64,000 bases of DNA from NCBI GenBank assembly GCA_964636295.1, contig CAZWQY010000006.1, positions 10,486 to 74,485 on the forward strand. Direction: 5' to 3'. A program made the position numbers and the translations under genes. Below, one piece after another: positions 1-25,924 of this stretch (position 1 is its first letter; each line of letters starts with the position of its first letter). Below the pieces are notes generated by a model, which did not search any database, was not told the DNA's origin, and was given only the letters and a program-made list of their open reading frames with translations. Origin of the DNA: an uncultured Lentisphaeraceae bacterium (GTDB lineage Bacteria; Verrucomicrobiota; Kiritimatiellia; RFP12; UBA1067).

Positions 1-1452
1 TTCTCGCAGAAAGTCATATTCAACCAAAAGGAGTATTACCGTTGTGACTGCGATCCGAAGACACACATACGGAAATGTAGTTGCAATGATGGGTATGTGA
101 CCTGTAAGACGTGCGATGGACATGGGAAACTTGTTTACGAGTGGTTCCTTGAACAGCGATATAAGAAGATTTCCAAGTCTCGTGTTTGGAAGTTAAATGA
201 AATCCTGTCGGACAGGTTCTACAATGTTGACAAGTTGCCATGGCGTACGCTTTATGAGCGTGAAGTCGAAGATGAGATGTTCACGCCGTGTGTGCCGAGC
301 GATGCCTCAGAAGATGCTGTGAAGTTCATGGCGGCCGTTGCCCTTGGGGAAGCCTGGCAGACATTTGATGAAGAGATTAAGGAGGAGGTTGGAGCATTTA
401 AATCCGAGGGTGGCGACAAGGCAGTCCTGCGACCGTCTTTTCAATCTGCGAAATTTGAACAATACGATGGGATTGTTCGATACGTATATGAATACGAGGG
501 GAAGGAATATGTCGCCTGGATTAATCTTGCGACGGAGGATGTCGAGGAGGGCGAGGGTGGCCTTTATGCATCGATTGCCGAAGAGACTGTTCGCTTGGCA
601 AAAGATTCAGAACGGAGCGACCCGCAGAAGGCCATCTACTATTACTGTAAGGCGGATGCCATCAGTTTGAAATGGGGAAAAGAGAATGGAACGCAACAGA
701 AACGGGAAACTCAGTACAGGAGACTCGGCTGTCTGTTTGCAGGAATTCTGCTGATATGTGTCGCGGGTGGTTGGATCCCGGCACTTTTCATGTCGGGGAT
801 GAATATCGGAGGTCTCGCGGCTTCGATCGTTGGTCTGGCAGTCGTCACGTTTTGTATGGCATCGCTTAACGAAGCGCTGCAGTTATGCGGTTTTGCGTTG
901 GTGTTTGGATTGGCCTATGCGAGCAAACGATGGTTCGGAAGTGAGGTTGCAGACGACCTCGTCTTTCGAGAAGGGCTTCTCATGGGGTATGTGTCCTATG
1001 CACTCGTTGTCATGGCCCTGACAACGGATTTTGCGCAGCGACTTCCGGGCGGGAGAAAAGGCTTAATGTTCGGCGGGCTTGCGGCCGGTCTCTGTTCCCT
1101 GCCACTTCCTCTGTTCATCGCCTTGGAAATGCAGTCTTTTGTGGCGTTGGGCGGTATGTTCTTGCCTTTGAGCTGGCTTCTGTCCGTGGCGGTTCTGCGC
1201 TTTCCGTATCGGTTGAAAGCAGGAAAAATGCAGCGCTTTGTCGAGAAGAACCTGGGGCGTGGCGAGGTGGTCAGACGTGAGATTGAGAAACGGCATCCAG
1301 GCAAGGCTGGCCTTGTCAGCATGGCGATAGTCCTTGGCGGTTTTATGGCACTGTCTGCGGTGGGGGTGCTTATGTGCGGGTTCGTGGATGATAGTATTGG
1401 AAACCTACACTTCAAGTTTATCACGGCACTCCAAGACAGTGGAATCCTATAA
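1..1452 (+). CDS. Membrane protein with a DnaJ-type Cys-rich zinc-finger N-region and about 7 TM helices (5' end outside window)
   Basis: Frame 1 is open from base 1, so the listed GTG 97 start is probably internal. The N-part reads YYRCDCDPKTHIRKCSCNDGYVTCKTCDGHG (CxxCxGxG-like repeats). From LGCLFAGILLICVAGG onward there are about seven hydrophobic helices. G+C is visibly lower than in the core genes. Confidence 0.6.
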   Translation, partial: FSQKVIFNQKEYYRCDCDPKTHIRKCSCNDGYVTCKTCDGHGKLVYEWFLEQRYKKISKSRVWKLNEILSDRFYNVDKLPWRTLYEREVEDEMFTPCVPSDASEDAVKFMAAVALGEAWQTFDEEIKEEVGAFKSEGGDKAVLRPSFQSAKFEQYDGIVRYVYEYEGKEYVAWINLATEDVEEGEGGLYASIAEETVRLAKDSERSDPQKAIYYYCKADAISLKWGKENGTQQKRETQYRRLGCLFAGILLICVAGGWIPALFMSGMNIGGLAASIVGLAVVTFCMASLNEALQLCGFALVFGLAYASKRWFGSEVADDLVFREGLLMGYVSYALVVMALTTDFAQRLPGGRKGLMFGGLAAGLCSLPLPLFIALEMQSFVALGGMFLPLSWLLSVAVLRFPYRLKAGKMQRFVEKNLGRGEVVRREIEKRHPGKAGLVSMAIVLGGFMALSAVGVLMCGFVDDSIGNLHFKFITALQDSGIL

Positions 1453-1484
1453 CCAACAAGAATAATGGAACAAGGAGAAGTCTT

Positions 1485-3152
1485 ATGAATCGCATTTTTG
1501 TCATGATGGTAGCCGGAGGTGTCTGTGTGTCGGCATACTGTGGAATTTGGGACACCATTAAGTCCGCAGGAAAAAGTGCGGCGGATATAGTGGATGAGGC
1601 CGTTGATACGACATCTAAAATCGCGACGAATTCGCTTCAAGTCATGAATGTCGAACAGAAGTCGATACGCTCCGAACCTGTGGCTCATCGTAGTCAACGG
1701 AGGCCCTCACAGTTTGTCGGGAATCCAACCACAGACAAGACGCGGCGGCCTCGTTTTCTGCGGAAGAATGGCGATGTACGAAAAGGGCGTGAAGTGGCAA
1801 GGGAAGATGCAAGTACATTCGCAAGAAAGAATAGGTACTATATATTCTTGAGGGAGTGGGAGCAACTTCAGGCAAAGTACGAAAGAAGACTGTCACAGTC
1901 TGAGGATGCAGGACGACAGGTGATACGTGTCGAACAAAACGATGCAGAGGTTGAAGAGATTATTCCCGCGCCAGGTTGGGAAGAACTGGCTTATAGATTT
2001 TATGGCACATCGAGATTGAAATTGCCTAAGACAGACGCGCTTTTAGATCAATGGATTAAGGCCACACGACAAGCTTATGCGAAGGAATATGCCAAGCAGG
2101 CGGCAGAGCGCGAAGCTGCGCTTGCTAAGGAAAGGGCAGAGCGCGAAGCTATGCTTGCCAAGGAAAAGGCAGAACGCGAAGCGATGGTCAAATGGGTTGA
2201 TGAGCAACTTGCGCTGTCGCGTGAGTTTAAGAAATGGGCAATCGATGTAGTTAATGACAAGGCCCATGATTTTAAGGTCATTTCTTTTATAGAAGACCAA
2301 GAGACGTCTGTTAGACTTCGCCAAGCCATTATTTCAATCAGCAAAGAACTCCCTGATAGTGTGGACAGGTATCGTTGCCTTGGAGATGAGCAGTTGAGAA
2401 GAACTCTCAAATCCCATGTGGACGGCATATGCGCCATTAGGGAGCCTATCAATGTCAAGCTCGCCAGCTTGAAGAAGGAGGATGAATCGATTCGTGCGTT
2501 GCGTCAGACATGGCGTCCAACCAACGTGGATACAAATCGCCCGGCTGTTGGCACTCTGAAATTGGGGGCATCTCTTTTTGAAGCGGCACAATGCCTGTGC
2601 CAAGAGGATTATATGAAAGTGGGCACTGAAGGTCGAAGACGGGTCTATGGTCTTCCGAAACTTGGACAATTAGAGGATGTGAGGTTGGACTTTAGGGAGG
2701 TCTCGGCGACGCAGGGACTGTTTCTCGTGCGTGGGGCATATGCCGTTCCAAAGTCCGTCTCCTACGATGATGTTGTCAAACGGTGTGCGCGTGAACTTGG
2801 AGGTAGCCCAACAAGGAAGACGAAGTCGGAAATGGTTGGGTTTGCCATGGACGATTTGCGGAAGCGAAATCAATGGGCGGCGTGGCAGCTCGAATACTAT
2901 TCTGCCCGTGCGAAGCGGCATGAAGAGCAAAAACGGAAAGGAGATGCCAACCGACATAAAACTCTCGCGAAAGAAACTGCGGCTCGTTATAAGGCAAAAG
3001 AGTTGATTTTGGTCGAGACAATGCTCTCGGACAACGGCTATGAGGTACGTGTCATTTCAAATGTTGGCGGAAAAACGGTTGGTCGAGTGCTGATTCAGGA
3101 TATGATGGCTCTGAAGGAATGTGAGAAGCAAGGCGGACAGGAGGGGAAATAA
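1485..3152 (+). CDS. Hypothetical membrane-anchored ER/K coiled-coil protein (555 aa)
   Basis: SD-like AAGGAGAAG lies just upstream of ATG 1485. The N-terminus has a hydrophobic segment (MMVAGGVCVSAY). Charged repeat AAEREAALAKERAEREAMLAKEKAEREAM and a second ER/K run near the C-terminus. No family recognised. Confidence 0.7.
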   Translation: MNRIFVMMVAGGVCVSAYCGIWDTIKSAGKSAADIVDEAVDTTSKIATNSLQVMNVEQKSIRSEPVAHRSQRRPSQFVGNPTTDKTRRPRFLRKNGDVRKGREVAREDASTFARKNRYYIFLREWEQLQAKYERRLSQSEDAGRQVIRVEQNDAEVEEIIPAPGWEELAYRFYGTSRLKLPKTDALLDQWIKATRQAYAKEYAKQAAEREAALAKERAEREAMLAKEKAEREAMVKWVDEQLALSREFKKWAIDVVNDKAHDFKVISFIEDQETSVRLRQAIISISKELPDSVDRYRCLGDEQLRRTLKSHVDGICAIREPINVKLASLKKEDESIRALRQTWRPTNVDTNRPAVGTLKLGASLFEAAQCLCQEDYMKVGTEGRRRVYGLPKLGQLEDVRLDFREVSATQGLFLVRGAYAVPKSVSYDDVVKRCARELGGSPTRKTKSEMVGFAMDDLRKRNQWAAWQLEYYSARAKRHEEQKRKGDANRHKTLAKETAARYKAKELILVETMLSDNGYEVRVISNVGGKTVGRVLIQDMMALKECEKQGGQEGK

Positions 3153-3153
3153 A

Positions 3154-4368
3154 ATGAGTTTTGAATCGAGCATGATGCGATTCATTCGTGCGCTGAGCGA
3201 AAGATTTTCGCACGAGAACGACCTTTCGGATGTCGTCTACACGTTGTGCGAGAGCAATCCCGTTTTCCGTCAGTTCTTTCTGGACTTTTTATTCAAGGGA
3301 GAGAATCTGGATGGAGAGAATGTCGTGATTCTTCGTGAGATATCGTATGATGGGTCTCGTCCGGACTTTGTAATTAGGGGTCAGGGATGCACCTACTTCG
3401 TTGAGGTCAAGATCTGGGATGCGACGCATCATTTTAAACAATATGCGGATACGCTGCAAAGCCATGAGAAGGCGGGTGAGAAGGTTGGCTTCGCCTACAT
3501 AACAAACTACACAATCAATGAGGCATTGCTCAGTCAAGATGATCTGGATGTCTATAAGTCGATGAAAGCCAAGGAGCGCGTCAAGACATGGAAGGCGTTC
3601 CGGGACGAACTCAAAAGGAAGGACACAGGGTTGTGTGACATCTGCGGATTCATTGAGTATTGCGAAAAGATTTGCCCGGACATAGAGGCAGAGACTGTTG
3701 CTGAATTTGACTTGGCTCACGCGGATTTCGCCTATGTCAAGAAGATGTATGACGGGTTGCGCGAGTACTTGGAGAAAACGCCGATTGTCGTGATCGGCGA
3801 GAAGTCCGTCGAGAAGTCCGTGAACCTGTCTAGATACGGAAGGGGTGATTTCAACAAGCCTGGAGAGTGGATTGGACACTATTTCAAAGCGTCAGGATTG
3901 ATGTCCGAAGATAAAGATGTTTGGGGGTGGGTCGGTTGGTTTCTTGACAAAAAGCGGGGCATTCCTGGACTCTGCATTGAATTTCTGAATAAACCTGGCT
4001 GGGGCAAGCCTTTGTTTGAGCGGAACGCCTATAGCAAAGACTATGCGTGGCGTTGGTGCGTTGCCTTTGGTGACAATGTGTCGGATGTTGAACCCGTTGT
4101 CTCAAAGGCATTTACCGACGCATTTTCAAGCGTCATCAAGGACGTCAGGGTTGCGCAACAGGAGCGCGTTCAGAATCCGGAACATATTCATTCGGAACAT
4201 ATTCGAGATATGCGACGGCTTTCGCTTTTTATCCGACAGCAGGTATTCCCCAAAATCTCTCTTGAAGGTGGACGGCAACTGATGTCCGTTGCGAAGTCCG
4301 ACAGCCACAATCCGTCTGGATGGTGCGGCGAGTACTTTGAAGTTGTCGGGCAGTCGCAGGTGGCGTAA
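3154..4368 (+). CDS. PD-(D/E)xK nuclease-superfamily protein with a C-terminal GW.G.YF repeat region
   Basis: ATG 3154 lies 1 nt after the upstream stop; the ORF-track start at 3121 would overlap gene 2. Motif SRPDFVIRGQGCTYFVEVKIWD matches the D...(D/E)xK core. Repeated EWIGHYF / GWCGEYF motifs occur further downstream. Confidence 0.6.
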   Translation: MSFESSMMRFIRALSERFSHENDLSDVVYTLCESNPVFRQFFLDFLFKGENLDGENVVILREISYDGSRPDFVIRGQGCTYFVEVKIWDATHHFKQYADTLQSHEKAGEKVGFAYITNYTINEALLSQDDLDVYKSMKAKERVKTWKAFRDELKRKDTGLCDICGFIEYCEKICPDIEAETVAEFDLAHADFAYVKKMYDGLREYLEKTPIVVIGEKSVEKSVNLSRYGRGDFNKPGEWIGHYFKASGLMSEDKDVWGWVGWFLDKKRGIPGLCIEFLNKPGWGKPLFERNAYSKDYAWRWCVAFGDNVSDVEPVVSKAFTDAFSSVIKDVRVAQQERVQNPEHIHSEHIRDMRRLSLFIRQQVFPKISLEGGRQLMSVAKSDSHNPSGWCGEYFEVVGQSQVA

Positions 4369-4656
4369 ATAATGAGGCGAAGGAGCCCTGCTGCAAGACC
4401 GGGTGGCTCGGCATCTATTTTGACGATCAGACACATCTAGGAAAGTCATTCAAAGCCAATGATCTTGTCTGTGAATATGATGGTCAACCTGGTATTGCGT
4501 TGAACACATCAAAAGAAGTGCTGGATTCAGAGTGTGCCGCGAAGATAGCCCGTCAGATCGAGGCGATAATTTGTCCGGTTGGTGCGTGCGTGAAACGGTA
4601 GATTGTGTTGACAGATCAAGGCCATTCTGTGACGGGCGGACTTCGTCTGTGTGCGC

Positions 4657-6507
4657 TCAGGCGCGGTCGAACTTGCGGTCGAGTTCGCGCGTGGAGGTGA
4701 AGATCAGGACGGGCTTGCCGCGCGGGCAGACATAGGGCATCCGGCAGGCGCAAAGCTCTTTGACGAGCGTTTCCGCGCCTTCTTGCGTGAGCTTGGACGA
4801 CGCGCCCGCGAATGTGCGCGCGACGGACTTCGCGATGCGCTCCTCGCGCCAGCGTTCGCCGCTTCGGCGCGAGCCGCCCTCCGCGAGGTCGTGCGCGATT
4901 GTCGTGAGGACGGCCGAAGGGGCGAGTTCGCCGAGGTGCGGCGGCACGGCGTCGATCTTGAAGGTGTCCGTCCCGAACGGCTCGATCTGGAAGCCCATGC
5001 GCACAATCGTCTCCAGCGACGCGGAAATGCGCGCGGCTTCGACAGGCCCGAGCTTCACCGTTTCGGGAATGAGCAGGGCCTGGGCGGGCGGCGCGGCGTC
5101 CGTCGCCGAGACGGCGGCCAGAAGCCGCTCGTAGGCGATGCGTTCGCGCGCGGCCTGCGGGTTGATCGTGACAAGCCCCGCGTCCGTCTCGATGAGCAGA
5201 TAGCCTGACGAGGTCTGCGCAAGAAAGCGAAACCACTGCCAGGGCCGCGACTGCGTCGAGTCCGGCTCGACGGCAAAGGAAATCTCTCCCTGAACGGGCG
5301 CGGCCGCCGGAAGCGGCGTGGCGGCGGGGGCGGAGAGGGGGGAGGGGGGGCTGGAGGGACGGGAGGGGCAGGAGGGACTTGGGGGTAAGGGGCTTGGGGG
5401 GCAAGAGGGGCTTGAGGTTAAGGGACTGGAGGGGCTTGAGGGTTCTCTCGCCTCTCTTGTCTCTCCTGTCCCATTTGCCGTTGCCCCGCCGGCGCCGAGT
5501 GCGGCGGCGACGGCCGTTTCGATCGCGCGCTTGACGGCGGTGTTGTCGCGGAAGCGCACGTCGCGCTTCGTCGGGTGGACGTTGACGTCGACCTGCGTCG
5601 GCGGCAGTTCGATGAAGAGAATTGTCGCCGGGCGCGCGTCGCCCGCGCGGCGCGGATACGCTTCGCGCAGCGCATAGGCGACGGACGCCGCCGTCGCGGG
5701 GCGTCCGTTCACGAAGACGTACTGGTCGCGTCGCGTCGGCGTGGCGAGGTTCGGCCGTTCGATCAGCCCCGTCACGCGCACGTTCGCCGCGTTGTCCGCG
5801 CTGTCCGCGTCCGGCCCGCCGAGCGGCAGCATCTCGGCGAGGAAGTCGTCGCCGAAGAGGTCGCGGACGCGCTCGCGCACCGAGTTCGCCGGGGCGAGGC
5901 GGTAGAGCTCGCGCCCGTCGATCGCCAGCGAGAAGCCGACGTTCGGATGGGCGAGGGCGTGCGTCGTGAAGACCGTCTTGACGTGCGCTTCCTCCGTCGC
6001 GTAGGCGCGCAGGAACTTGCGCCGCGCCGGAACGTTGCAGAAGAGGTCGCGCACCTCGACGCGCGTGCCGGGCGGACACCCCGCCGCGCGCACTTCGGCG
6101 AGCGTGCCCGCGTTGACCTGGAGGAACGTGCCTTCGTCGGAGTCGGCGCGCCGCGTTGTGATCGAGAAGCGCGAGACGGACGCGATCGAGGGAATCGCCT
6201 CGCCCCGGAAGCCGAGCGTGTCGATCGCCTCGATGTCCGTGACGTCGCGGATCTTCGACGTCGCCTGACGTTCGAGCGAGAGGAGGACGTCGTCTTTCGT
6301 CATGCCGCAGCCATCGTCCTGCACGGCGACGAGTTTGCGCCCGCCCTGCGTGACCATGACGGCGATGCGCGTCGCGCCTGCGTCGAGGGCGTTCTCGACG
6401 AGTTCCTTGACGACGCTCGCGGGGCGTTCGACGACTTCGCCCGCCGCGATCTTGTTCGCGACGTGAAGCGGTAGGACGCGCACGTGTCCGTCGCGGTCAG
6501 AAATCAA
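4657..6507 (-). CDS. mutL: DNA mismatch repair protein MutL
   Basis: N-terminus VLPLHVANKIAAGEVVERPASVVKELVENALDAGA is the GHKL ATPase signature. The C-terminus carries the CPRGKP...FDR region. A Pro/Ser-rich linker lies between them. The listed start is TTG 6507; GTG 6483 (giving MRVLP...) is an equally plausible start. Confidence 0.93.
   Translation of the reverse strand: MISDRDGHVRVLPLHVANKIAAGEVVERPASVVKELVENALDAGATRIAVMVTQGGRKLVAVQDDGCGMTKDDVLLSLERQATSKIRDVTDIEAIDTLGFRGEAIPSIASVSRFSITTRRADSDEGTFLQVNAGTLAEVRAAGCPPGTRVEVRDLFCNVPARRKFLRAYATEEAHVKTVFTTHALAHPNVGFSLAIDGRELYRLAPANSVRERVRDLFGDDFLAEMLPLGGPDADSADNAANVRVTGLIERPNLATPTRRDQYVFVNGRPATAASVAYALREAYPRRAGDARPATILFIELPPTQVDVNVHPTKRDVRFRDNTAVKRAIETAVAAALGAGGATANGTGETREAREPSSPSSPLTSSPSCPPSPLPPSPSCPSRPSSPPSPLSAPAATPLPAAAPVQGEISFAVEPDSTQSRPWQWFRFLAQTSSGYLLIETDAGLVTINPQAARERIAYERLLAAVSATDAAPPAQALLIPETVKLGPVEAARISASLETIVRMGFQIEPFGTDTFKIDAVPPHLGELAPSAVLTTIAHDLAEGGSRRSGERWREERIAKSVARTFAGASSKLTQEGAETLVKELCACRMPYVCPRGKPVLIFTSTRELDRKFDRA
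5325..5445. repeat. Degenerate 9-nt-period G-tract repeat (plus strand) encoding the MutL Pro/Ser linker
   Basis: The plus strand has many GGG+ runs (GGGGCTTGGGGGGCAAGAGGGGCTTGAGG...). The minus strand reads CCC-TCN-AGC type codons, giving PSSPSSPLTSSPSCPPSPLPPSPSCPSRPSSPPSPLS. Confidence 0.8.
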
Positions 6508-7597
6508 GGCTCAGCCCCTTTCGGATGAACGTCGGCACGTCGAGGTCTTCGTCGTGCCAGATCGTCGGCTCGGCGTTCTTGAAGCGTCCGCGCCCGACGG
6601 GTCCGGTGGCGAGCGTCCCCTTGCCGCGCCGGCGGCGCGAGCTCATGACGCCGCCGACGGCGGGCGTCTCAGCGGCCTTGCGGGCGGACGCCTCGAAGAG
6701 CAGCGCGACGACGGAGAGTCGGCCGGAGAACGTCGCCTCGTCGTTGACCGTCGCGAGGTCGAACGAGAGGCCGCCGAACGCGCCCCGAAGGCCGTCCGCG
6801 ACGCGCCCGACCTCGCTCAGGAGCAGGTCGTCGCCAGCGAGGACGCCGCAGACCAGGGCCGAGACCGGACCGGAGGCGGCCGCGAGCAGGTCGGAGTGGA
6901 TCAGCCGGTCAACGGCTTCCGCCGCGCGGCCGGGGCCTTGTGTCGTCACGGTCGCGAAGCGTCCGCGCCCCGCGTTCGCGAGCAGGTGGCGCAGACGCTC
7001 GACGTCGAGCCGGATGTAGCCGGGCTTTTCGACGAGCCGCCAGAAGAGCGTGACGCCGCTCGCGACCGTGTCGATGGCGCGGCGCATGGCCTCGGCCATG
7101 TTGTCCGTCTCGGCGATGAGCTTGTCGAGCGGCAGGAAGAACGTCGCGTTCGCCGCGTCCTCGATCATGGACATGACGCCGCGCGCGTTGCGCTGGCGGT
7201 CTTCGCCCTCGAAGGTGAAGGGCGTCGTCGCGAAGACGATCGCCGGAACGCCGCGTGTGGCGAGGTGCTTGGCGATTTCGAGCGTCGCGCCGCCGCCGGT
7301 GCCGCCGCCGAGCGCCGTGACGAGCACGGCGAGCCGGACGTCCGCCAGGTGCTCGTCGAGCGCGCGGACGGAGCCTTCGGCCGCGAGGCGGCCCGCGACG
7401 AGGTCGCCGCCCGCGCCGCGTCCGGCGAGGCGTTCGCCGCCGAGCAGCGCGAAGGGCCCGCCGGCTTCGCCGGTCGCGGCGTCCGTGTCGGCGAGGACGA
7501 CGCGCAGGGCGTCGCCGTAGGCGCGGCAGACGCCGCGCGCGATCGCGCAGCCGGCCGTGCCGACGCCGAGAAGGAGAAGGGGGGAACGGTCGCTCAT
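6497..7597 (-). CDS. ftsZ: Divergent FtsZ (tubulin/FtsZ GTPase)
   Basis: Tubulin signature ALGGGTGGGAT, followed by TTPFTFEGEDRQRNA. C-terminal peptide DEDLDVPTFIRKG resembles the FtsA-binding tail. The gene lies immediately downstream of ftsA with an ATGA overlap. The N-terminal G-box is degenerate (LLGVGTAGCAIA). Confidence 0.72.
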   Translation of the reverse strand: MSDRSPLLLLGVGTAGCAIARGVCRAYGDALRVVLADTDAATGEAGGPFALLGGERLAGRGAGGDLVAGRLAAEGSVRALDEHLADVRLAVLVTALGGGTGGGATLEIAKHLATRGVPAIVFATTPFTFEGEDRQRNARGVMSMIEDAANATFFLPLDKLIAETDNMAEAMRRAIDTVASGVTLFWRLVEKPGYIRLDVERLRHLLANAGRGRFATVTTQGPGRAAEAVDRLIHSDLLAAASGPVSALVCGVLAGDDLLLSEVGRVADGLRGAFGGLSFDLATVNDEATFSGRLSVVALLFEASARKAAETPAVGGVMSSRRRRGKGTLATGPVGRGRFKNAEPTIWHDEDLDVPTFIRKGLSLDF

Positions 7598-8799
7598 TTG
7601 AAGAACCTCCCGAAGAGTCCGTCGAGGAGGGACTTCTCCTCGTAGTTCCGGTGCGCGTAGAGGAGCGCGCCCGCGATGGCCGCGAACGCGGGCGGGAAGG
7701 GCACGTCGTCGAGCCCGTCGACGTAGAGGGGCTTGCCGAGGCGCACGGACGTGCCGAGGACGTCTTCGGCGAGAGGCTCGATGTCGCGCATCTGCGCGCC
7801 GCCGCCGGTGAGGACGATGCCCGCGTGGAGGCGGTGGAGGAGGTCTTGCTCTTCCAGCGTCTCGCGCACCATCGTGAAGAGCTCGAGGAGGCGCGCGTTC
7901 ACGACGGTGTCGAGCGCGCGGCGCGAGATCGTGCGGTTGTCCATGAGCGTGTTCGCGCCGCGCTCGACGCGGACGCGCGCGGACGCGCCTTCGGCCGCGC
8001 CGATGCGCGCGCTCGCCTCGTCCCTCTTCAGGCCCTCGGCCTGGGCGTGCGTCGTCTGGAACGCCTGGGCGATGTCGCTCGTCACGTGGTCGCCGCCGAC
8101 GCCGAAGACGCCCGTCGAGACGGCGTAGCCGTCGGCGTAGACGGCATAGCCCGTCGAGCCGCCGCCCAGGTCGAGGACGAGCACGCCGTTCTTGCGCTCG
8201 TGGTCTTCGAGGACGGCGTCGGCGGCGCAGGTGACGGCGTAGAGCGGGTCGCGGATCTCGAGGTGCGCGGCTTCCGAGGCGGTGCGCGCGTCCTGGATGC
8301 GGTTGCGGTCGGCGTGGATCTGCAGCGTGTTGAGGCTCAGGACGCGCCCGGACATGCCGCGCGGCGCGGCGATGCCGCCGAGGCGGTCAAGGACGTAGTC
8401 CTGGTCGATGATGTCCAGGAGCTCGCGGTCGCGCGGCAGCGTCATCGCGTGCGCGTTGTGCTGGGCGGCGTCGATCTCGTCCGCGCCGACCTTCGCGCCC
8501 TCGACCTGCGTCGAGCCGGAGAAGGGGTCGGCCTTGATGGACTGGCCGGAGACGACGAGGAAGGCGTTGCCGAGGGTGATGCGGTCGCCGGAGGCTTCCT
8601 GCTTGCGTTCCGTCTGCTGGAGAACCGAGCGGATCGACTGGGTCGCCTGGCGGATGTCGAGGATCTGGCTCTTGCGCACGCCGGTCGAGGGGATCTCGGC
8701 GTGGCTGATGACGCGCAGACGGCCGTTCGCATCGACCTCGCCGATGGCGAGGACGGTGCGCGTGGTGCCGATTTCGAGTGCGGCGTGGAAATTGCTCAT
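7594..8799 (-). CDS. ftsA: Cell division protein FtsA (actin-like ATPase)
   Basis: N-terminus ALEIGTTRTVLAIGEV, then DLGGGSTGYAVY and IVLTGGGAQM phosphate motifs. Adjacent to ftsZ. Confidence 0.85.
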   Translation of the reverse strand: MSNFHAALEIGTTRTVLAIGEVDANGRLRVISHAEIPSTGVRKSQILDIRQATQSIRSVLQQTERKQEASGDRITLGNAFLVVSGQSIKADPFSGSTQVEGAKVGADEIDAAQHNAHAMTLPRDRELLDIIDQDYVLDRLGGIAAPRGMSGRVLSLNTLQIHADRNRIQDARTASEAAHLEIRDPLYAVTCAADAVLEDHERKNGVLVLDLGGGSTGYAVYADGYAVSTGVFGVGGDHVTSDIAQAFQTTHAQAEGLKRDEASARIGAAEGASARVRVERGANTLMDNRTISRRALDTVVNARLLELFTMVRETLEEQDLLHRLHAGIVLTGGGAQMRDIEPLAEDVLGTSVRLGKPLYVDGLDDVPFPPAFAAIAGALLYAHRNYEEKSLLDGLFGRFFK

Positions 8800-17584: not shown

Positions 17585-18787
17585 ATGAAGATTGTGGTAT
17601 CGATCGCAATCGTTTGTGCGGCGGGACTGTGGGTTGTCTGGTATAGGGCTGAAGCGGCCAAGCAGGAGCGGGCGGAACAGCGGCAGCAACAGCGAGAAGC
17701 GCAGGCTCGACAGGAAAAGCAAGAAGCGGAGCGGCGGGCGGAGGACGCACGTATCCAACGGGAGCGGCTGGCGGACGTTGCAAAGGAAGATGCCGTCAAG
17801 TTGTTCCTGCGTTATGTCGAGAAGGAAGAAGACCGATTGAAAGAATTCATTGAAGAAGCCAAGTTGATATGCGAAACGATTGCCGTCGATCAACAAAGCC
17901 TTTCGGATGAACTTGTTGTGATCGGACGGCAGAATGAGGGAGAGGCGGCCGCCAGTAGACAACGTGGGGAGAAGCGGAGGGACGAGGTCGAGTACGTGAA
18001 GCGGCTTTTGCGCTCACCTGTCCTCAACCGCTTGGCAGAGACCTATCTAGGCGAAGACCTATCGGCGATGCGTGCGGAGTTTCAGAATCAGATCGGAACG
18101 TTAACGGGTCTTCGTGACGATCTCACGAATCGGCGTGCGGCAAATCAACGCGCGTATGAAGCGGCCATTGGATCGGTTGACGACGATGTGAACAAGAAGA
18201 GCAAAATGGCACAGGAAAAGAGCAAGGAAACGCGAGAACACATCGAGAGCAATATGCGCGTTTTGGAATCTCGTGTGGAGGGGTTGCGTCAGAGAATCAG
18301 GAAACTTGAGACCAAAGTCGGCAAGTCCGCTTGGGACAATCGTGCGTTGGAGCGGCTGCGCAAGGAGTTGGAGGTCGCCGAGTTGCGGTTGTCGCATTAT
18401 CGAGACGTTGAAGGACTGTCTTCCGTCAACAGATTGCAGAACGAGGCCTTGTTGGCGGAGACGCGCGCGCGTCGTGCGCATGACACCGCGTTGGATGCGC
18501 GAACTCGCGCGGACGATGAAGCGTTGGCGGCGTATACGCATGAAATGGGAATCTACACGGAAGCGTCTCGGTTCGAGGATCGTTCCCTTGATGCCATTCG
18601 CACGGCCATGCGGCGACGGCAAGACCTATTGGCCGTTCAGATGTCGGATGCACGGCATAAATTGGCGTTCCTCAAGGAGTCATCGACGAATATCGATTTC
18701 CTCAAGGCGGATGAAGTCGAGGATATGCGTCGGAAGATTGCCAAGCGGTTGAGCGTTCAGGTCATGGGCGAAGAGGAGGCGAAATGA
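17585..18787 (+). CDS. Hypothetical N-terminally anchored all-coiled-coil protein (400 aa)
   Basis: TM segment IVVSIAIVCAAGLWVVWY is followed by an ER/K-Q run (AKQERAEQRQQQREAQARQEKQEAERRAEDAR) and heptad-like sequence to the end. Its stop overlaps the next start (ATGA). G+C is lower than in the core. Confidence 0.7.
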   Translation: MKIVVSIAIVCAAGLWVVWYRAEAAKQERAEQRQQQREAQARQEKQEAERRAEDARIQRERLADVAKEDAVKLFLRYVEKEEDRLKEFIEEAKLICETIAVDQQSLSDELVVIGRQNEGEAAASRQRGEKRRDEVEYVKRLLRSPVLNRLAETYLGEDLSAMRAEFQNQIGTLTGLRDDLTNRRAANQRAYEAAIGSVDDDVNKKSKMAQEKSKETREHIESNMRVLESRVEGLRQRIRKLETKVGKSAWDNRALERLRKELEVAELRLSHYRDVEGLSSVNRLQNEALLAETRARRAHDTALDARTRADDEALAAYTHEMGIYTEASRFEDRSLDAIRTAMRRRQDLLAVQMSDARHKLAFLKESSTNIDFLKADEVEDMRRKIAKRLSVQVMGEEEAK

Positions 18788-20052
18788 TTTTCTCGTTGGC
18801 GACATTGTTTGCTTTTGGCGTTGTCATCGGACCTCGTCCAGACGGCATTGTCCGTGATTCGTTTATCCGCGCCGGCGTGACATTAAAGGATTTTGATCGT
18901 TTAACCGAGGGCTCGAGAAGCGGAAAGACACATTATGCAGGGAATGGATCTGGGTTCTTCATCACGGAAGACGGCTACCTTGTGACGAATCATCATGTCA
19001 TTGAAGATGCCGCAGAACTGGTTGTCGTGAAGGATGGCGTTGCATACCTTGCAGACGTGAAGGCCAAGAATCGGGAACTTGATCTTGCGCTGTTGAAGAT
19101 CAATGCCTTCCCGCGTCCGACGGATGGTGTCTTGTACATTCGGGGGTTGCCGCGTTTTGCTCCGCTTTCGTGTTCAGACGAACCGTCGGCTCGTGTCGGT
19201 CAGACGGTTTTAGTCGTGGGTTTCCCGCAGATCGAATTGCAGGGGATAGAACCAAAAGTGACGCGCGGAATTGTTAGTAGTTTGAGTGGGGTTATGGGCG
19301 CAAAAGATCGGTTTCAGATGGATGCGGCCATCCAAGGAGGAAATTCCGGCGGGCCAGTTGTAGATGAATGGGGGCGTCTGATCGGTGTCTCGGTTTCAAG
19401 TTTGATAGTTGGCGAGAATGTGAATTATGCCGTGAACCTCGAAAGTGTCATGCGTTTTCTTCCGAAGGACATTGGATTTCGGTCGTCTGTTCGGCGGCGG
19501 AGGCGCGCCACATCAGATGTCGTAGCGGATGTCATCAAGTCAACGGCCTTGATTCTGAATTATGCTGAAGGTTCTCATGGGAATGTCGAACATCTAGCGT
19601 CGGACGTGGAGCGACGTGAAGCACAGACCGAACTGAGAAAGGGGGTTTTGGCCGCCCGGATGCACAGGCTTCGGCGTGAGTGGCGGGAGCTCAAGCGTGT
19701 GACAGATGCCATCTTGGCACGGCACGGCGAAGTTGACGATGTCCGAGACATGAATGACTTGGCGCGTGACGAGCTGGGGCTTCACCTTGTTCTTGTTGCG
19801 GAGGCGGACGGACGTGACGTGAAAGCCGTTGTTCGTCCCATCTGCGGGTTCAAGGAAGAGGTCGTCGAGTGCGAACGCCCGACAGCCGTCTTTGGTGGGC
19901 GCGAACGGAGAAACTTCCCGGTTGAAGCCGAACTGACGTTTGAAGATGGTGACTGGCTTTGGGCGGGGACGTTCACGTGCGTCTATGATTGGCATGGGAC
20001 GAAGGAAGTCCGGATTAAGATGAAGCGAGTTGGAAAGAAAGGCGATAAATAA
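18784..20052 (+). CDS. S1 (trypsin/HtrA-like) serine protease with an N-terminal anchor and an uncharacterised C-domain instead of PDZ
   Basis: Triad contexts are VTNHHVIED (His), RELDLALLKI (Asp) and GGNSGGPVVD (Ser). Strong SD GAGGAGG precedes the ATG. N-terminal hydrophobic segment IFSLATLFAFGVVIG. The last 170 aa or so are unassigned. Confidence 0.8.
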   Translation: MIFSLATLFAFGVVIGPRPDGIVRDSFIRAGVTLKDFDRLTEGSRSGKTHYAGNGSGFFITEDGYLVTNHHVIEDAAELVVVKDGVAYLADVKAKNRELDLALLKINAFPRPTDGVLYIRGLPRFAPLSCSDEPSARVGQTVLVVGFPQIELQGIEPKVTRGIVSSLSGVMGAKDRFQMDAAIQGGNSGGPVVDEWGRLIGVSVSSLIVGENVNYAVNLESVMRFLPKDIGFRSSVRRRRRATSDVVADVIKSTALILNYAEGSHGNVEHLASDVERREAQTELRKGVLAARMHRLRREWRELKRVTDAILARHGEVDDVRDMNDLARDELGLHLVLVAEADGRDVKAVVRPICGFKEEVVECERPTAVFGGRERRNFPVEAELTFEDGDWLWAGTFTCVYDWHGTKEVRIKMKRVGKKGDK

Positions 20053-21632
20053 TGAATCTCATTTGTGCGGAATGTGGCCGTGAAATGGTTGTTGACGGAA
20101 TGCTTCAGGATGGGGACATCGTGGCTTGTCCGTCGTGCGGATTGGAGACGGAATATCGAAAGCCAAGTCGAATTGCCGTTCCAACAGGCTTTTCGGGTCG
20201 CGGCGGGAAGTCGGAATCGCCAGCAGAATCCCTGAAGGCTCGCCCAAAGTTGCGGGTCATACGCAAGGACACGCCAACGAAAGGCGGAACGCCTATCTCG
20301 AATGTTCCTTTGCCGAACCAGGCTCGTCATGATTTGCCGCCAAAGCCACCGCGTCCGCGTGCGCAAAAGACAGGAGGTTCAGGCGGGGGCGGTTCCGTTT
20401 CCCTGCTTCTTGTCTTGTTGGTGCTCGGTGCGACATATTGGGGGTATCGCACGTTCGTTTCGGAGCGCGCGGACATTGAAGAGCAGCCTGTCACCACGGA
20501 TCAAAAACAGTCGGGTCTGGATGAGGCTGAGAAAGTTCGGCGACAAAAGGCAGAAGAGGAAGAAGCACTCCGTCAACGCGAGCGACAGCGCGAAAAAGAG
20601 CGAAAAGAACGAGAGCGAGCGGAGGCGCGCGCGGAGATGGCGCGGAATGCGGAGGCCGAAAAAGCCAATCGCCAGGCTTATCGTGTGGCGATGGACGCAT
20701 TTTCCGGCAAGAGCAGCTATTTTGCCGTTGGCGTTCCCAAAGATGAGATTCCCGATCCACGGCAAACGGACGAGGCGTTGACGTTTTGGGCGGCGGACAA
20801 GTCGTTTTGTGAGCAAGGGCTGATTTATGAGATTCAGACAGGGGCTGGAGGCATTGCGTCTGTTCGTTCGCTCTCGGCGAGCGGCTCGCCAACGGAGGTT
20901 GGAAAAGACGAGTTTGTTCAGCGCCTGGAATCGGGCGTCTGGGCCGTTTCGACTGGAGAGGCGGTTTGGATTTTGGGGACGGGGAAGTCCGCTCGGCTTG
21001 TTCCGCTCCCGAAAGACAGAGAGGACGTTTGCCCGATGGGCGATGAACTGGGCGAGGCGATGGCTTCGATCATGGCGTTGCACATGAAGTTGCCAGATGT
21101 GCGCTATCGGCTCTCCTTAAAGCCCAAGTCGGGCGGGGAGGGCTTGCCGCTTGGCATCATTTCGGGGCGTGAGCGGCTGCCTTTCGTGCGTATGCGAGAG
21201 GCCGTCAAGAAGGTTGTGGCCGAACGGCAGGCGGCACAGGCTCTTGCCAAGTTGAAGAAGCCAAAAGCCAAGAGGTTCAAGCCGACGGTTATTTTCTACG
21301 ATGGGAGCATTATCTCTAAGAGTTTGAATGGCGTGACGCGCGTTCCAAGGTCATTCACGTATTTGGGCACAAGCCGGGGCAACAACTATTCTCATGTGAA
21401 CGACATTCGGGAGCGTGCCCGAGAGAAATGGGAGAAGATGCGCGCGGAAGCCGAACGTCAAGAGCGAAAGGCGCGCGAGGTCGAGGCGGAAAATGCTGCG
21501 GCTCTACAGGCGTACAAGCGCAAGCGCGCGGAACTGTCGCGCAATGTTGACGTGAGCGATCGGGATGTCGAGGCGGAATTAGCGAGGTATGGGCTGTTGG
21601 TTGAGCGAAGCCGGACGAAGATTCCGGACTAG
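20052..21632 (+). CDS. Zinc-ribbon / single-TM / ER/K coiled-coil protein (526 aa)
   Basis: The N-terminus has CAECG...(19 aa)...CPSCG (a 4-Cys zinc ribbon) and a basic Pro-rich linker. TM segment SVSLLLVLLVLGATYWGY is followed by RQKAEEEEALRQRERQREKERKERERAEARAEMARNAEAEKANRQ. The start overlaps the protease stop (TAATG). Confidence 0.7.
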   Translation: MNLICAECGREMVVDGMLQDGDIVACPSCGLETEYRKPSRIAVPTGFSGRGGKSESPAESLKARPKLRVIRKDTPTKGGTPISNVPLPNQARHDLPPKPPRPRAQKTGGSGGGGSVSLLLVLLVLGATYWGYRTFVSERADIEEQPVTTDQKQSGLDEAEKVRRQKAEEEEALRQRERQREKERKERERAEARAEMARNAEAEKANRQAYRVAMDAFSGKSSYFAVGVPKDEIPDPRQTDEALTFWAADKSFCEQGLIYEIQTGAGGIASVRSLSASGSPTEVGKDEFVQRLESGVWAVSTGEAVWILGTGKSARLVPLPKDREDVCPMGDELGEAMASIMALHMKLPDVRYRLSLKPKSGGEGLPLGIISGRERLPFVRMREAVKKVVAERQAAQALAKLKKPKAKRFKPTVIFYDGSIISKSLNGVTRVPRSFTYLGTSRGNNYSHVNDIRERAREKWEKMRAEAERQERKAREVEAENAAALQAYKRKRAELSRNVDVSDRDVEAELARYGLLVERSRTKIPD

Positions 21633-21655
21633 CGGTTAGTCAGTCTGCTCGGATG

Positions 21656-21664
21656 TGGTATAAT
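21656..21664 (+). promoter_or_regulatory. Extended -10 box TGGTATAAT, 8 nt before the dnaE ATG (leaderless)
   Basis: TGGTATAAT-ACGCCCTC-ATG(21673). Confidence 0.7.
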
Positions 21665-21672
21665 ACGCCCTC

Positions 21673-24600
21673 ATGTCCGACTTCGTCCATCTCCATCTCC
21701 ACACGACCTATTCGCTCCTTGACGGGCAGTGCCAGATCGTGCCGCTCGTGAAGAAGGCGCGCAAGCTCGGCATGCCGGCCCTCGCCGTCACCGACCACGG
21801 CAACCTCTTCGCGCTCAAGAGCTTCTACGACGAGTGCCGCTCGAAAAAGGAGAAGACGTACGGCGACCTCGCCGGCGTGCACGTCAAGCCCATTCTGGGC
21901 TGCGAGGCCTACGTCACCTCGACGGGCGACTACAGGACGCGCGACAAGTCGGAATATCGCCATCACCTCTGCCTCCACGCGATGAACCTGACGGGCTACC
22001 ACAACCTCGTCAAGCTCATCAGCGAAGCCCACATCAACGGCTTCTACATGCGGCCGCGCATCGATCATGCGCTCCTGGAGAAGTACCACGAGGGCCTGCA
22101 CTGCTCCGCCGCGTGCATCGCGGGCGAAGTCGCGCGGGCGATCGACCAGGGCCGCATGGACGAGGCCGAGCGCGTCGCGAAATGGTACAAGGATCTCTTC
22201 GGCGAGAACTACTCGCTGGAGGTCATGCTCCACAAGGCTGCGAAGTCCGGGCCGGACGTTCCGCTGTCCGCGCAGAACGAGTTCGCCGACCTCTACCAGC
22301 GCCAGCTGAAGGTCGTGCGCGGCATGCTCGAACTCGGCAAGAAGCTCGACATCCGCGTCGTCGCGACGAACGACGTCCACTTCCTCGAGGCGGACGACGA
22401 CGACTCGCACGACGTCCTCCTCGCGCTCTCGACGGGCAAGAAGATGTCCGACGAGAAGCGCATGGTCTACACGGGCCAGGAGTACTTCAAGAACGAGGCG
22501 GAGATGCGCGCGCTCTTCGCGGAGAATCCGGAGCTGATCGCGAACACGAAGGAGGTCGCCGACCGCATCGAGGAGTACGACCTCGACTCGCCGCCGATCA
22601 TGCCGAAGTTCGCGATTCCGGTCTCGTTCGGCACGGAAGAGGGCTATGCGAAGGAATTCGACGAGGCGAAGCTGAAGGCCGAGTTCAACGTCCAGAAGGA
22701 AGGCAACTTCGACCGTCTCGGCGGCTACGACAAGGTGCTGCGCATCAAGTTCGAGGCGGACTACCTGGCCGACCTCGTCTGGAAGGGCGCGGCGATCCGC
22801 TGGGGCGACAAGGACGGGCAGGTTCCGGAGTCCGTGCGCGAGCGCGTCCAGTTCGAGCTGGACACGATCAAGCTCATGGGCTTCCCCGGCTACTTCCTCA
22901 TCGTGCGCGACTACATCCGCGCGGCGCGCGAGGAGTGCGGCGTGTGGGTCGGCCCTGGGCGCGGCTCTGCCGCCGGCTCGGCCGTCGCGTACGCGCTCTG
23001 GATCACGAACGTCGATCCGCTCAAGTACGATCTCCTGTTCGAGCGATTCCTGAATCCCGACCGCATCTCGATGCCGGATATCGACGTCGACTTCGACGAC
23101 GCGGGCCGCGAGCGCGTGCTCGACTACGTCACGCGCAAGTACGGCGCCGACCACGTCGCGCACATCGTGACGTTCGGCCAGATGGCCGCGAAGTCGGCGA
23201 TCAAGGACGTCGGGCGCGTGATGGACTATCCGCTCCCCGACACGAACAAGCTCGCTTCCTACGTCCCCGACACGCCGAAGATCAACTTCAAGAAGGCGCG
23301 CAAGGAGTCGCCCGAACTGGAGGCCGCGTTCAACTCCGAAGACCCGGTCGTCCACAAGCTCATGGAGCGTGCGGGGCGGCTGGAGGGCTGCATCCGCCAG
23401 CCGGGCGTCCACGCCTGCGGCGTCATCATCTCGCGCGACCCGATCGCGGAGACGCTGCCCGTCATGCCGACGCCGGAGAAGAGCGGCGCGAAAGGCAAGG
23501 GGAAGGGCGCGGCGGACGGCGCCGGCGCGGAGGACAAGCTCCTGACGACGCAGTACGACGGGCATTTCGTCGAGCCGGTCGGCCTGCTCAAGATGGACTT
23601 CCTCGGACTCAAGACGCTGACGGTCGAGAAGGAGTGCGTCGCGCTCCTCGGCAAGAACAACCCGCGCGTCCCGGAGGCGATCCGCAACGCCGACGGCGAG
23701 CTTGACACCGACAAGATCCCGGACGACGACAAGGAGACGTACGCGCTCTTCGGGCGCGGCGAGACGACGGGCCTCTTCCAGTTCGAGTCGATGGGGATGA
23801 AGAAGTACCTCATGGCGCTCCAGCCCGAGAAGCTGACGGATCTCGTCGCCATGAACGCGCTCTACCGTCCTGGCCCGATGGCGTACATCCCCGACTTCAT
23901 CGACCGCAAGCAGGGGCGCAAGCCCGTCGTCTACGACCACCCGGAGATGGAGAGCCGCCTGAAGGACACGTACGGCATCACCGTCTACCAGGAGCAGGTC
24001 ATGTTGCTCTCGCGCGACCTCGCCGGCTTCACGCGCGGCGAGTCGGACAAGCTCCGCAAGGCCATGGGCAAGAAGCTCATGGACATCATGGCCGAGCTGA
24101 AGGCGAAGTTCATCAAGGGCTGTCTCGCGAACCCGAAGTTCATGACGGGGACGACGACGGTCGAGGGGCGCGCGCTCGACCTCACGAAGGAGGACGACGC
24201 GAAAGTCCTCATCGAGAAGATCTGGAAGGACTGGGAGGCGTTCGCCTCGTATGCGTTCAACAAGTCGCATTCCGTCTGCTACGCCTGGGTCGCCTACCAG
24301 ACGGGCTTCCTGAAGGCGCACTATCCGGCCGAGTTCATGTGCGCGCAGATCTCGTCCGAAATCGGCAACTTCGACAAGCTCCCCGGCTTCGTCGCCGAGG
24401 CGCGCGACATCGGGCTGGAACTCTTGCTGCCGGACGTGAACGAGTCCGGCGCGCGCTTCGTGCCGGCGAAGGGGTCGAAGGGCATCCGCTACGGCCTGGG
24501 CGGCATCAAGGGCGTCGGCAACGCGGCGGCCGAGGCGATCGTCGCCGAGCGCGCGGCGAACGGGCCGTACACGGGATTCCTCGACTTCTGCCTCCGCCTC

Positions 24601-25908: not shown

Positions 25909-25924
25909 GGCGCGGGCCTCGATT

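Follow-up and report, generated by a model that had tools for sequence, protein, structure and literature searches.

What is encoded in the low-G+C stretch that opens the 64,000-nucleotide window analyzed here (the whole stretch of DNA under study, positions 10,486 to 74,485 of contig CAZWQY010000006.1 of an uncultured Lentisphaeraceae bacterium), and could it be a defence system? The initial annotation described three genes at the left end of the window, gene 1 (g1), gene 2 (g2) and gene 3 (g3), as a horizontally acquired module that pairs membrane and sensor-like proteins with a PD-(D/E)xK nuclease, following the general logic of anti-phage or abortive-infection systems. Here we show that the foreign origin holds and that the conserved unit is a different one: g1 and g2 belong together with a fourth gene, g0, located left of the window, and g3 is one of several accessory genes that are swapped among related loci. 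We put at roughly 0.4 the probability that g0-g1-g2 constitutes a new defence module, anchored in the membrane and equipped with exchangeable cytoplasmic effectors, represented in this genome by a copy with a damaged effector and a probably phase-variable poly-G promoter.

A conserved membrane core with exchangeable accessory genes

Homologues of g1 (40-68% identity) are always followed directly by a homologue of g2 and always accompanied by a homologue of g0, which is located after g2 in most lineages and before g1 in the window island and in L111/L113; homology of the neighbours was confirmed in loci L024-L029, L111-L114 and L117-L120. By contrast, none of the 17 genome loci that encode a g3 homologue has g0, g1 or g2 alongside, and seven other lineages of the g1-g2-g0 core lack g3. 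Because g1, g2 and g0 are kept together and g3 homologues reside elsewhere, we define the core as g1, g2 and g0 and treat g3, which joins it only in the window island and a sister island, as accessory. The three genes do not, therefore, constitute one module as initially proposed, and the operon, three genes of which are indeed in the window, consists of four.

In other lineages, the accessory slot is occupied by different genes. L024, L027 and L028 encode a small Walker-A (P-loop) protein; L113 encodes an unknown protein of 370 amino acids (aa) and a PdaC/DUF3298 lipoprotein; and L117/L118 encode a 311-aa protein with a C-terminal Mrr_cat restriction endonuclease domain (42.6 bits against a cut-off of 21), on the same strand as g1 and 18 nucleotides (nt) upstream of the g1 homologue (L117:185-1120; L118:219-1154). 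In L119 and L120, the slot is empty. Two unrelated PD-(D/E)xK nucleases are joined to the same membrane core, and the Mrr_cat case carries the greatest weight.

Defence-type or mobile genes are also located near the core. L024 encodes a YafQ/RelB pair, an N6/N4 methylase and a UvrD/GajB-like helicase with a fused PDDEXK_1 domain; the others are PDC-S01 (AAA_14/DUF4143, E 1e-158) in L026 and L028; ParE/Phd in L117; DUF3990 in L119; and an IS200-like Y1 transposase gene in L027. Toxin-antitoxin, methylase, UvrD-PDDEXK or PDC-S01 genes are located near the core in 5 of about 8 contexts, a small sample. The second nuclease and these defence-type neighbours lend support to the logic of the initial annotation, in which membrane and sensor-like proteins act with a nuclease, and the part that fails is the unit containing g3, which is not conserved.

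A horizontally acquired island next to mutL

The G+C content is 0.47-0.52 across window positions 1-4600 and 0.67-0.77 from about 4700 onward, that is, about 49% in positions 1-4604 compared to about 70% in the host, so that the abrupt change of composition first noticed near position 4600 amounts to a drop of 20 points. The genes in the low-G+C stretch are co-oriented, with spacers of 32 nt (g1-g2) and 1 nt (g2-g3), and converge on the 3' end of mutL (4657..6507, minus strand), in agreement with the spacing and orientation reported previously. mutL, identified by Pfam domains on identical contigs and by the synteny kept in island-free relatives, is a host gene outside the island. The junction between island and host falls within positions 4601..4656, where G+C climbs to the host level in the short spacer preceding the mutL stop.

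The same island surrounds an identical g2 on at least 23 metagenome contigs (Logan and ENA, exact look-up). It is missing from all five relatives with conserved synteny (L031-L034 and L043; MutL 63-65% identity), which keep the ftsA-ftsZ-like-mutL gene order, encode no homologue of g0-g3, and have ordinary genes (rpsA, lepA, an ABC permease) downstream of mutL; the genes are thus not a universal companion of mutL. A sister island (L110, also L115 and L116) shows 95% DNA identity to window positions 2135-4604 and encodes g2 followed by an intact g3. This alignment ends 4 nt past the ancestral g3 stop, and because the identity ends there, we place the right edge of the island at about 4604. The sister-island contigs hold only about 45 nt of flank, which cannot be aligned with that of the window and fits both a different site and a diverged orthologous one. 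At every locus, the G+C content of the module is below that of the flanks (for example, the module has 0.50 and the flanks 0.70 in L113, and the values in L024 are 0.44 and 0.48-0.51). With its aberrant composition, its sharp boundary and its absence from relatives, the stretch qualifies as a genomic island, foreign to its host and horizontally acquired, as proposed initially. Window positions 1-4604 represent the right-hand part of an island of about 5.7 kb; every available contig stops at a poly-G tract left of g0, and the left end of the island lies beyond it.

A different low-G+C insert (0.39-0.50) was observed in one of the relatives, L033 (MutL 64% identical), at positions 3500-8727, about 2 kb downstream of mutL and after rpsA; it encodes an AAA_13 ATPase and a fragment with RHS repeats. 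Within this group, the DNA that follows mutL appears variable.

Proteins of the core

The portion of g1 in the window (1..1452, plus strand, stop at 1450-1452) comprises the last 483 codons of a gene for a 640-aa protein; the 157 codons located left of the window were recovered from metagenome contigs with an identical g2, and the full length was taken from L001, completing the leftward extension that the initial annotation had called for. The g1 family consists of 19 clusters (90% identity) among 5.8 billion sequences, none of them from NCBI genomes, and a profile search for more distant relatives returned the same 19 clusters. Zinc knuckles of the CxxC(xGxG) type (CSCNDG, CKTCDGHG) are encoded at about 43-126 and are followed, at about 691-1437, by a helical membrane domain with 6-8 hydrophobic helices according to hydropathy, consistent with the DnaJ-type cysteine repeats and about seven transmembrane (TM) helices noted previously. 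In the family alignment, the cysteines of the CxxC pairs are invariant, as are a block ahead of the membrane domain, PQ.AIYYYCKADAISLKWGKENGTQ, and polar residues within the predicted membrane helices (S445, N447, E448, Q451, D476, R480 and E481). Invariant polar motifs of the membrane half are S-x-N-E..Q, T-D and R-L-P.

In the AlphaFold (AF2) model of g1 (pLDDT 89.5), residues 1-340 form long beta hairpins and short zinc-ribbon strands and are followed by helices up to the C-terminus. The predicted topology is that of an inner-membrane protein with a cytoplasmic, beta-rich half of about 390 aa that would carry the zinc knuckles, and a membrane half. A Foldseek comparison of this fold with PDB and BFVD produced no match, the best E-values (0.12 and 0.02, with low probability) being generic helical-bundle or tape-measure noise. 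Weak profile matches to BSD2, EMB2737, DnaJ CR and anti-TRAP were detected (E 0.009-0.24), and a search of the g1 profile against PDB sequences yielded weak zinc-finger matches alone. The repeated CxxCxGxG-like knuckles with invariant cysteines resemble the zinc fingers of DnaJ, BSD2 and anti-TRAP. However, g1 is not a member of the DnaJ CR family PF00684 (17.0 bits for the window lineage and 25.8 bits for the best homologue, against a cut-off of 32.7), lacks a J-domain, and has its knuckles within a novel beta-rich domain that is larger and continues into a membrane domain. An anti-sigma factor was also considered for g1 and rejected, given that the cytoplasmic domain of 390 aa and the 6-8 TM helices differ from a ZAS domain with one TM helix.

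The second core gene, g2 (1485..3152, plus strand), encodes a 555-aa protein that, judging from its open reading frame (ORF) and hydropathy, is exported or membrane-anchored. It starts with a signal-like segment (1485-1550; hydrophobic residues 4-22), contains an ER/K repeat, A(E/K)REAxLAKE (about 2082-2192; residues 200-236), and ends in a conserved C-terminal domain (about 2680-3120; WAAWQ..YY in the family alignment); the hydrophobic anchor and the ER/K helices of the initial annotation are both found. An exhaustive HMMER scan of 1.84 billion representatives identified 11 representative clusters of g2 relatives. In all of them, an N-terminus that resembles a signal peptide and closes with A-x-A-G-[LIF]-[WF]-D is separated by a variable middle from the conserved C-terminal domain of about 150 aa; the ER/K repeat is restricted to the window lineage. 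The ratio of nonsynonymous to synonymous substitution rates (dN/dS) of g2 is 0.17-0.36. From these sequence features, g2 most likely works outside the cytoplasmic membrane. The fourth gene of the operon, g0, which precedes g1, encodes a 165-aa protein with 5 hydrophobic helices and is known from a few clusters; its predicted topology is that of a small protein with 5-6 TM helices.

A frameshifted nuclease-like accessory gene

The third gene in the window, g3, is a truncated ORF of 404 aa (3154..4368, plus strand; ATG at 3154, stop at 4366-4368), as judged by comparison to its homologues, which form 68 clusters of about 470 aa. Its N-terminal domain of about 130 aa (about 3154-3560) resembles the PD-(D/E)xK nucleases in motif and, with weak E-values, in modelled fold. 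Two alignments, of 33 and of 62 homologues, show no variation at the predicted catalytic-type residues D71 (3364-3366), E84 (3403-3405) and K86 (3409-3411) or at R69/P70, E21/D26 and R61/E62; across the 62 sequences, ENDLSD, located in an acidic helix upstream of the D...ExK motif, as well as RE, RPD, E-x-K, D and H, is invariant. Thus, the D/ExK residues reported previously are conserved among the homologues.

The AF2 model of g3 (pLDDT 88, pTM 0.84) was compared to PDB with Foldseek, and almost all of the top 50 matches are PD-(D/E)xK nucleases, aligned over about 120-190 columns with a best E of 0.01 and low TM-scores, the best of them covering roughly residues 1-130; they include Cdn1, SfsA, R2 RLE, Hjc, the Cas4-like ACE1, cap-snatching endonucleases, McrC and VRR-NUC. 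The structural comparison suggested initially points to this superfamily for g3, if with weak E-values, and found no fold for g1. Unlike established members of this superfamily, g3 remains below every Pfam and NCBIfam threshold (the best Pfam match, the SfsA RE domain, scores 15.2 bits against a cut-off of 22.8), and PHROGs and PADLOC gave nothing; sequence comparison with PDB produced chance matches alone, and the C-terminal two-thirds of the protein (about 300 aa, with a repeated GxYF...WGWxG motif) matches no solved structure. By its invariant motif, and with top fold matches that are nearly all nucleases, if weak ones, g3 is a genuine PD-(D/E)xK-type protein with a predicted nuclease activity.

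The clean motif RPD71...E84-x-K86 stands, but the gene does not end intact at position 4368. The window copy reads GTGGCG where two intact orthologues with 87% identity (P0001 and P0002) read GTGGGCG, a 1-nt deletion near 4362 that cuts a protein of about 473 aa to 404 aa and leaves 78 conserved codons (GVNNEAK...GWLGIYFD...ACVKR) readable in another frame (4362..4600, plus strand, open in the -1 frame and ending with TAG at 4598-4600). The last strands of the C-terminal domain and a well-predicted terminal helix are thereby lost from the protein. Because the 404-aa product was called in all six independent assemblies, the frameshift is a real, lineage-fixed mutation. The orphaned tail has no second lesion, and dN/dS is 0.46-0.64 for the window copy against 0.38 between intact copies, a difference too weak to show relaxed selection; since the tail is undamaged and dN/dS is barely raised, the frameshift looks recent. 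As a result of the frameshift, the effector is probably weakened or dead in the window genome.

Several other explanations of g3 were rejected. Programmed frameshifting would require a -1 slip at GTG-G, where a slippery heptamer is absent, and the orthologues have one G more; for separate expression of the orphaned tail, no start codon or ORF is listed; and a multi-copy, transposase-like nuclease is at odds with the single locus per genome (17 genomes) and the lack of any transposase-family match.

The genomes that carry g3 homologues are metagenome-assembled genomes (MAGs) labelled Verrucomicrobia, Kiritimatiellia, Lentisphaerae and Ca. Spyradenecus, with shorter versions of the protein in Bacteroidales. 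In Kiritimatiellia, Lentisphaerae and Verrucomicrobia MAGs, g3 homologues are co-oriented with genes for surface proteins of the BspA-type leucine-rich repeat (LRR)/BACON kind (1100-2200 aa) or a Sel1-repeat protein, 1 to 46 nt apart or overlapping (L013:899-5957, L014:964-8216, L015:2287-10543, L011:9126-13406 and L009:2539-6185). The BspA-type LRR giants are directly downstream (L011, L013-L015), and the Sel1-repeat protein gene overlaps the start (L009). The pairing of a nuclease-like protein with surface-protein genes is unexplained. Double-AAA ATPases, sigma-54 activators and a DUF3686 ATPase are also encoded next to g3 homologues.

Regulation of the module

Directly upstream of g0, about 1.2 kb left of window position 1, contig L005 (positions 27-53) carries a sigma-70-type promoter, TTGACA-T-G14-TATAAT. 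The same site is found at the ends of L001-L004 and L006, and all other assemblies break inside the G tract. The G run is 14 nt long where it is internal to a contig, and the terminal runs are 3, at least 22 and at least 26 nt long, in addition to one poly-C artefact; this variation may partly be a sequencing or assembly artefact. A run of 14 G is expected to occur by chance about 1e-4 times in the island. With G14, the spacer between the hexamers is 15 nt, and runs of 15-17 G would yield the optimal spacing of 16-18 nt. A potentially hypermutable repeat is thus placed so as to set promoter spacing, as in phase-variable promoters, and the tract, located outside the window, is probably a slipped-strand switch for the whole operon, in which case expression would be phase-variable. 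Contingency promoters with a homopolymer in the spacer between the -35 and -10 elements include those of Neisseria porA and opc (poly-G) and Bordetella fim (poly-C). The candidate switch resembles them in having poly-G between TTGACA and TATAAT, with assemblies that break at the tract and apparent lengths that differ, and is distinct in being known from assembled sequence alone. Within positions 1-4800, internal promoters and terminators are no more common than in shuffled sequence.

In five lineages, the module is preceded by a non-coding leader of about 190 nt that is more conserved than the adjacent proteins (L113:1490-1681, L117:1-187, L119:1490-1675, L027:3590-3790, L028:2165-2354 and L029:190-380). 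It is predicted to fold into a long nested hairpin and a hairpin proximal to the ribosome-binding site, with 95% of cells paired compared to about 51% when the partners are slid, and 6 pairs are doubly compensated; the covariation score, from six sequences, was reached by 1 of 500 shuffles. The leader has no Rfam match. The covariation is suggestive of a new cis-regulatory RNA, for which the leader is a candidate. The window island lacks this leader.

Two very different modules have homologous genes for a sigma factor of the ECF type (52% identity) and for a Ser/Thr kinase (42%) upstream of them, in divergent orientation (L113:1-1256; L027:1418-3317). Together, these genes are possibly a regulatory pair of the ECF43 kind, an established class in which Hanks kinases activate the sigma factor (PMC13147305, PMC8999054). 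Since defence islands, too, can be under the control of ECF sigma factors (PMC11506125), this clue does not discriminate between the hypotheses.

Functional interpretation and alternatives

None of the families searched identifies the function of these proteins. Pfam, NCBIfam, PHROGs and PADLOC gave nothing above threshold for g1, g2, g3 or their homologues. PADLOC-DB v2 (Zorya, Kiwa, Shedu, Gabija and others) gave no match for g1, g2, g3 or the intact g3 P0002, in line with the earlier statement that the gene set is not a named defence system. For the g1, g2 and g0 homologues and the P-loop protein of L024, there were two chance-level PADLOC matches, mad8 (P-loop protein) and DruC (g2), both with E 0.003.

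The case for defence is one of association, strengthened by the second nuclease. The module would have two layers, a rare conserved core of three envelope proteins (g0, g1 and g2), and an exchangeable cytoplasmic accessory gene in the same operon (g3, the Mrr_cat nuclease, the Walker-A protein, the 370-aa protein or none). Embedded in the membrane, the core would act as a sensor or platform, respond to an event at the envelope or to injection, and control a cytoplasmic effector, a nuclease where one is present, resulting in an anti-phage or anti-mobile-DNA system with a Zorya- or Kiwa-like logic, built from unrelated proteins. In the window genome, the effector gene is frameshifted and probably compromised, and the native leader has been replaced by the sigma-70-type promoter with a poly-G spacer. 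A more ambitious version of this scheme, which we hold as doubtful, is that g0-g1-g2 is the core of an undescribed envelope-spanning immune class, in which a polytopic sensor with zinc fingers in the inner membrane, a partner in the periplasm and a small subunit in the membrane would license interchangeable effectors (g3-type, Mrr-type or small NTPase). Its regulation would differ among lineages, with a new structured RNA leader and an ECF sigma/kinase pair in some and a slipped-strand poly-G promoter in others.

Several observations weigh against a defence function. No component matches any known defence protein; the guilt by association draws on some 8 contexts, and genes of the toxin-antitoxin and AAA_14 kinds are widespread in any case; core lineages L119 and L120 carry no enzyme. 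g3 is not a conserved partner of the core, its neighbours elsewhere are atypical for defence, the E-values of its fold matches are weak (at least 0.01), and it is frameshifted in all sampled genomes of the lineage, yet the island persists. The sigma/kinase pair (two lineages) and the structured leader (five lineages) fit an envelope-stress regulon equally well. Finally, IMG/VR scans contained no viral relatives of g1 and g3, a result that supplies no link to phages but is neutral with respect to defence; a phage-borne origin of the island is likewise unsupported.

The strongest competitor, itself unlikely in our estimate, is that the core is an envelope-stress or surface-remodelling module, for example, one handling an exported or surface protein, with its expression set by the sigma/kinase pair and the leader or by the phase-variable promoter, with the nuclease genes as incidental neighbours. 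Phase-variable promoters classically control surface structures, g2 appears to be exported and has a variable middle region, and g3 homologues are co-oriented and nearly overlapping with the BspA-LRR and Sel1 exported proteins. The presence of homologous sigma and kinase genes, resembling an established class of Hanks-kinase-activated regulators, upstream of two very different modules, and of a covarying leader ahead of the module, is also compatible with this explanation. However, the sigma/kinase pair is found in 2 of about 8 contexts and, in L113, has a host-like G+C content (0.70, against about 0.50 in the module), and ECF sigma factors run defence islands as well. Moreover, it is hard to ascribe to chance two unrelated nucleases in the operon at distances of 1 nt and 18 nt, and a housekeeping stress system would not be expected to show the patchy distribution of the module or its foreign character in every host.

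It is distinctly less probable that the island is the cargo of a mobile element, with a core that serves the element (for example, by excluding entry or superinfection, by addiction, or as a membrane toxin paired with immunity) rather than host immunity, and g3 as stand-alone cargo. A G+C content below that of every host, near-identical islands beside unalignable flanks, the toxin-antitoxin pairs and IS200-like Y1 transposase nearby, and the travel of g3 independently of the core would all be expected of such cargo. Against it, no integrase, relaxase, conjugation or phage gene was detected in about 10 loci inspected, although mobility genes may be out of view because the left end of the island, beyond the poly-G tract, was not recovered; no viral contig with g1 or g3 is found in IMG/VR; and the window contains no tRNA gene. 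Least probable of all is a decaying remnant without function in the window genome, with the g3 frameshift marking the onset of erosion: all six assemblies share the frameshift, the window copy of g3 has a somewhat raised dN/dS, and with G tracts of the observed lengths (14, at least 22 and at least 26) the two promoter hexamers would not be in register, but g0, g1 and g2 are intact, g2 has a low dN/dS, the orphaned g3 tail bears no further lesion, and the same island is present on at least 23 contigs from many samples.

Comparison with known defence systems

If the core is indeed a defence module, its closest counterparts in design would be Zorya and Kiwa. Zorya combines the ZorAB membrane complex with ZorC/D or the ZorE nuclease as effectors that differ by subtype. 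The shared features would be a multi-protein membrane core, a cytoplasmic nuclease, a variable effector, and location in variable or defence regions; however, neither sequences nor PADLOC profiles relate the core to ZorA/ZorB, the cytoplasmic domain of g1 is beta-rich with zinc knuckles and g1 has no MotA-like fold match, and g2 has no recognizable peptidoglycan-binding domain. In Kiwa, the membrane protein KwaA, a proposed sensor of infection at the envelope, works with the cytoplasmic effector KwaB, which acts on DNA. The analogy would consist in a polytopic membrane protein coupled to a soluble partner acting on DNA, whereas PADLOC finds no homology, and the core described here comprises three proteins, with an optional nuclease. 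Shedu-like proteins are single-gene nuclease defences in which a sensor domain is fused to a PD-(D/E)xK domain. g3 homologues are likewise single genes in variable regions, with a nuclease domain and a large extra domain, but they have no PADLOC match to Shedu, their domain order is reversed, and their neighbours are surface-protein genes rather than classic defence islands.

A defence function would add a membrane-based sensing architecture made of families without characterized or structurally solved relatives, and the interface between sensor and effector would become tractable through the effector swaps that nature provides. The source is a set of poorly studied gut bacteria, probably of the Planctomycetes-Verrucomicrobia-Chlamydiae (PVC) group. 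Even with another function, the three orphan families of proteins, of which two have confident models, merit description, along with a candidate cis-regulatory RNA and a candidate for a textbook-style poly-G promoter switch in a lineage with a scarce record of phase variation. The core families occur in metagenome assemblies only, so that experiments would need gene synthesis.

Other features of the window

Beyond mutL, the minus strand encodes a 366-aa protein of the tubulin/FtsZ family (6497-7597) and then ftsA (7594-8799), both in the host flank. mutL, the ftsZ-like gene and ftsA overlap end-to-start (6497-8799), and the same arrangement is found in L031, L032, L034 and L043. No Rfam families were identified in the window.

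A second, milder low-G+C stretch (0.54-0.59, against about 0.66) spans positions 17585-21632 and contains three tightly packed, co-oriented genes, which encode a 400-aa protein of unassigned function, a trypsin-like peptidase (Trypsin_2) of 422 aa, and a protein of 526 aa whose N-terminus gave a zinc-ribbon match just short of the Pfam cut-off (25.6 bits, cut-off 27); the stretch may be another accessory module. The minus strand at positions 21640-26067 contains a 1475-aa ORF with no Pfam match at E <=1e-5, overlapped by a long ORF on the opposite strand, as expected at 65-70% G+C.

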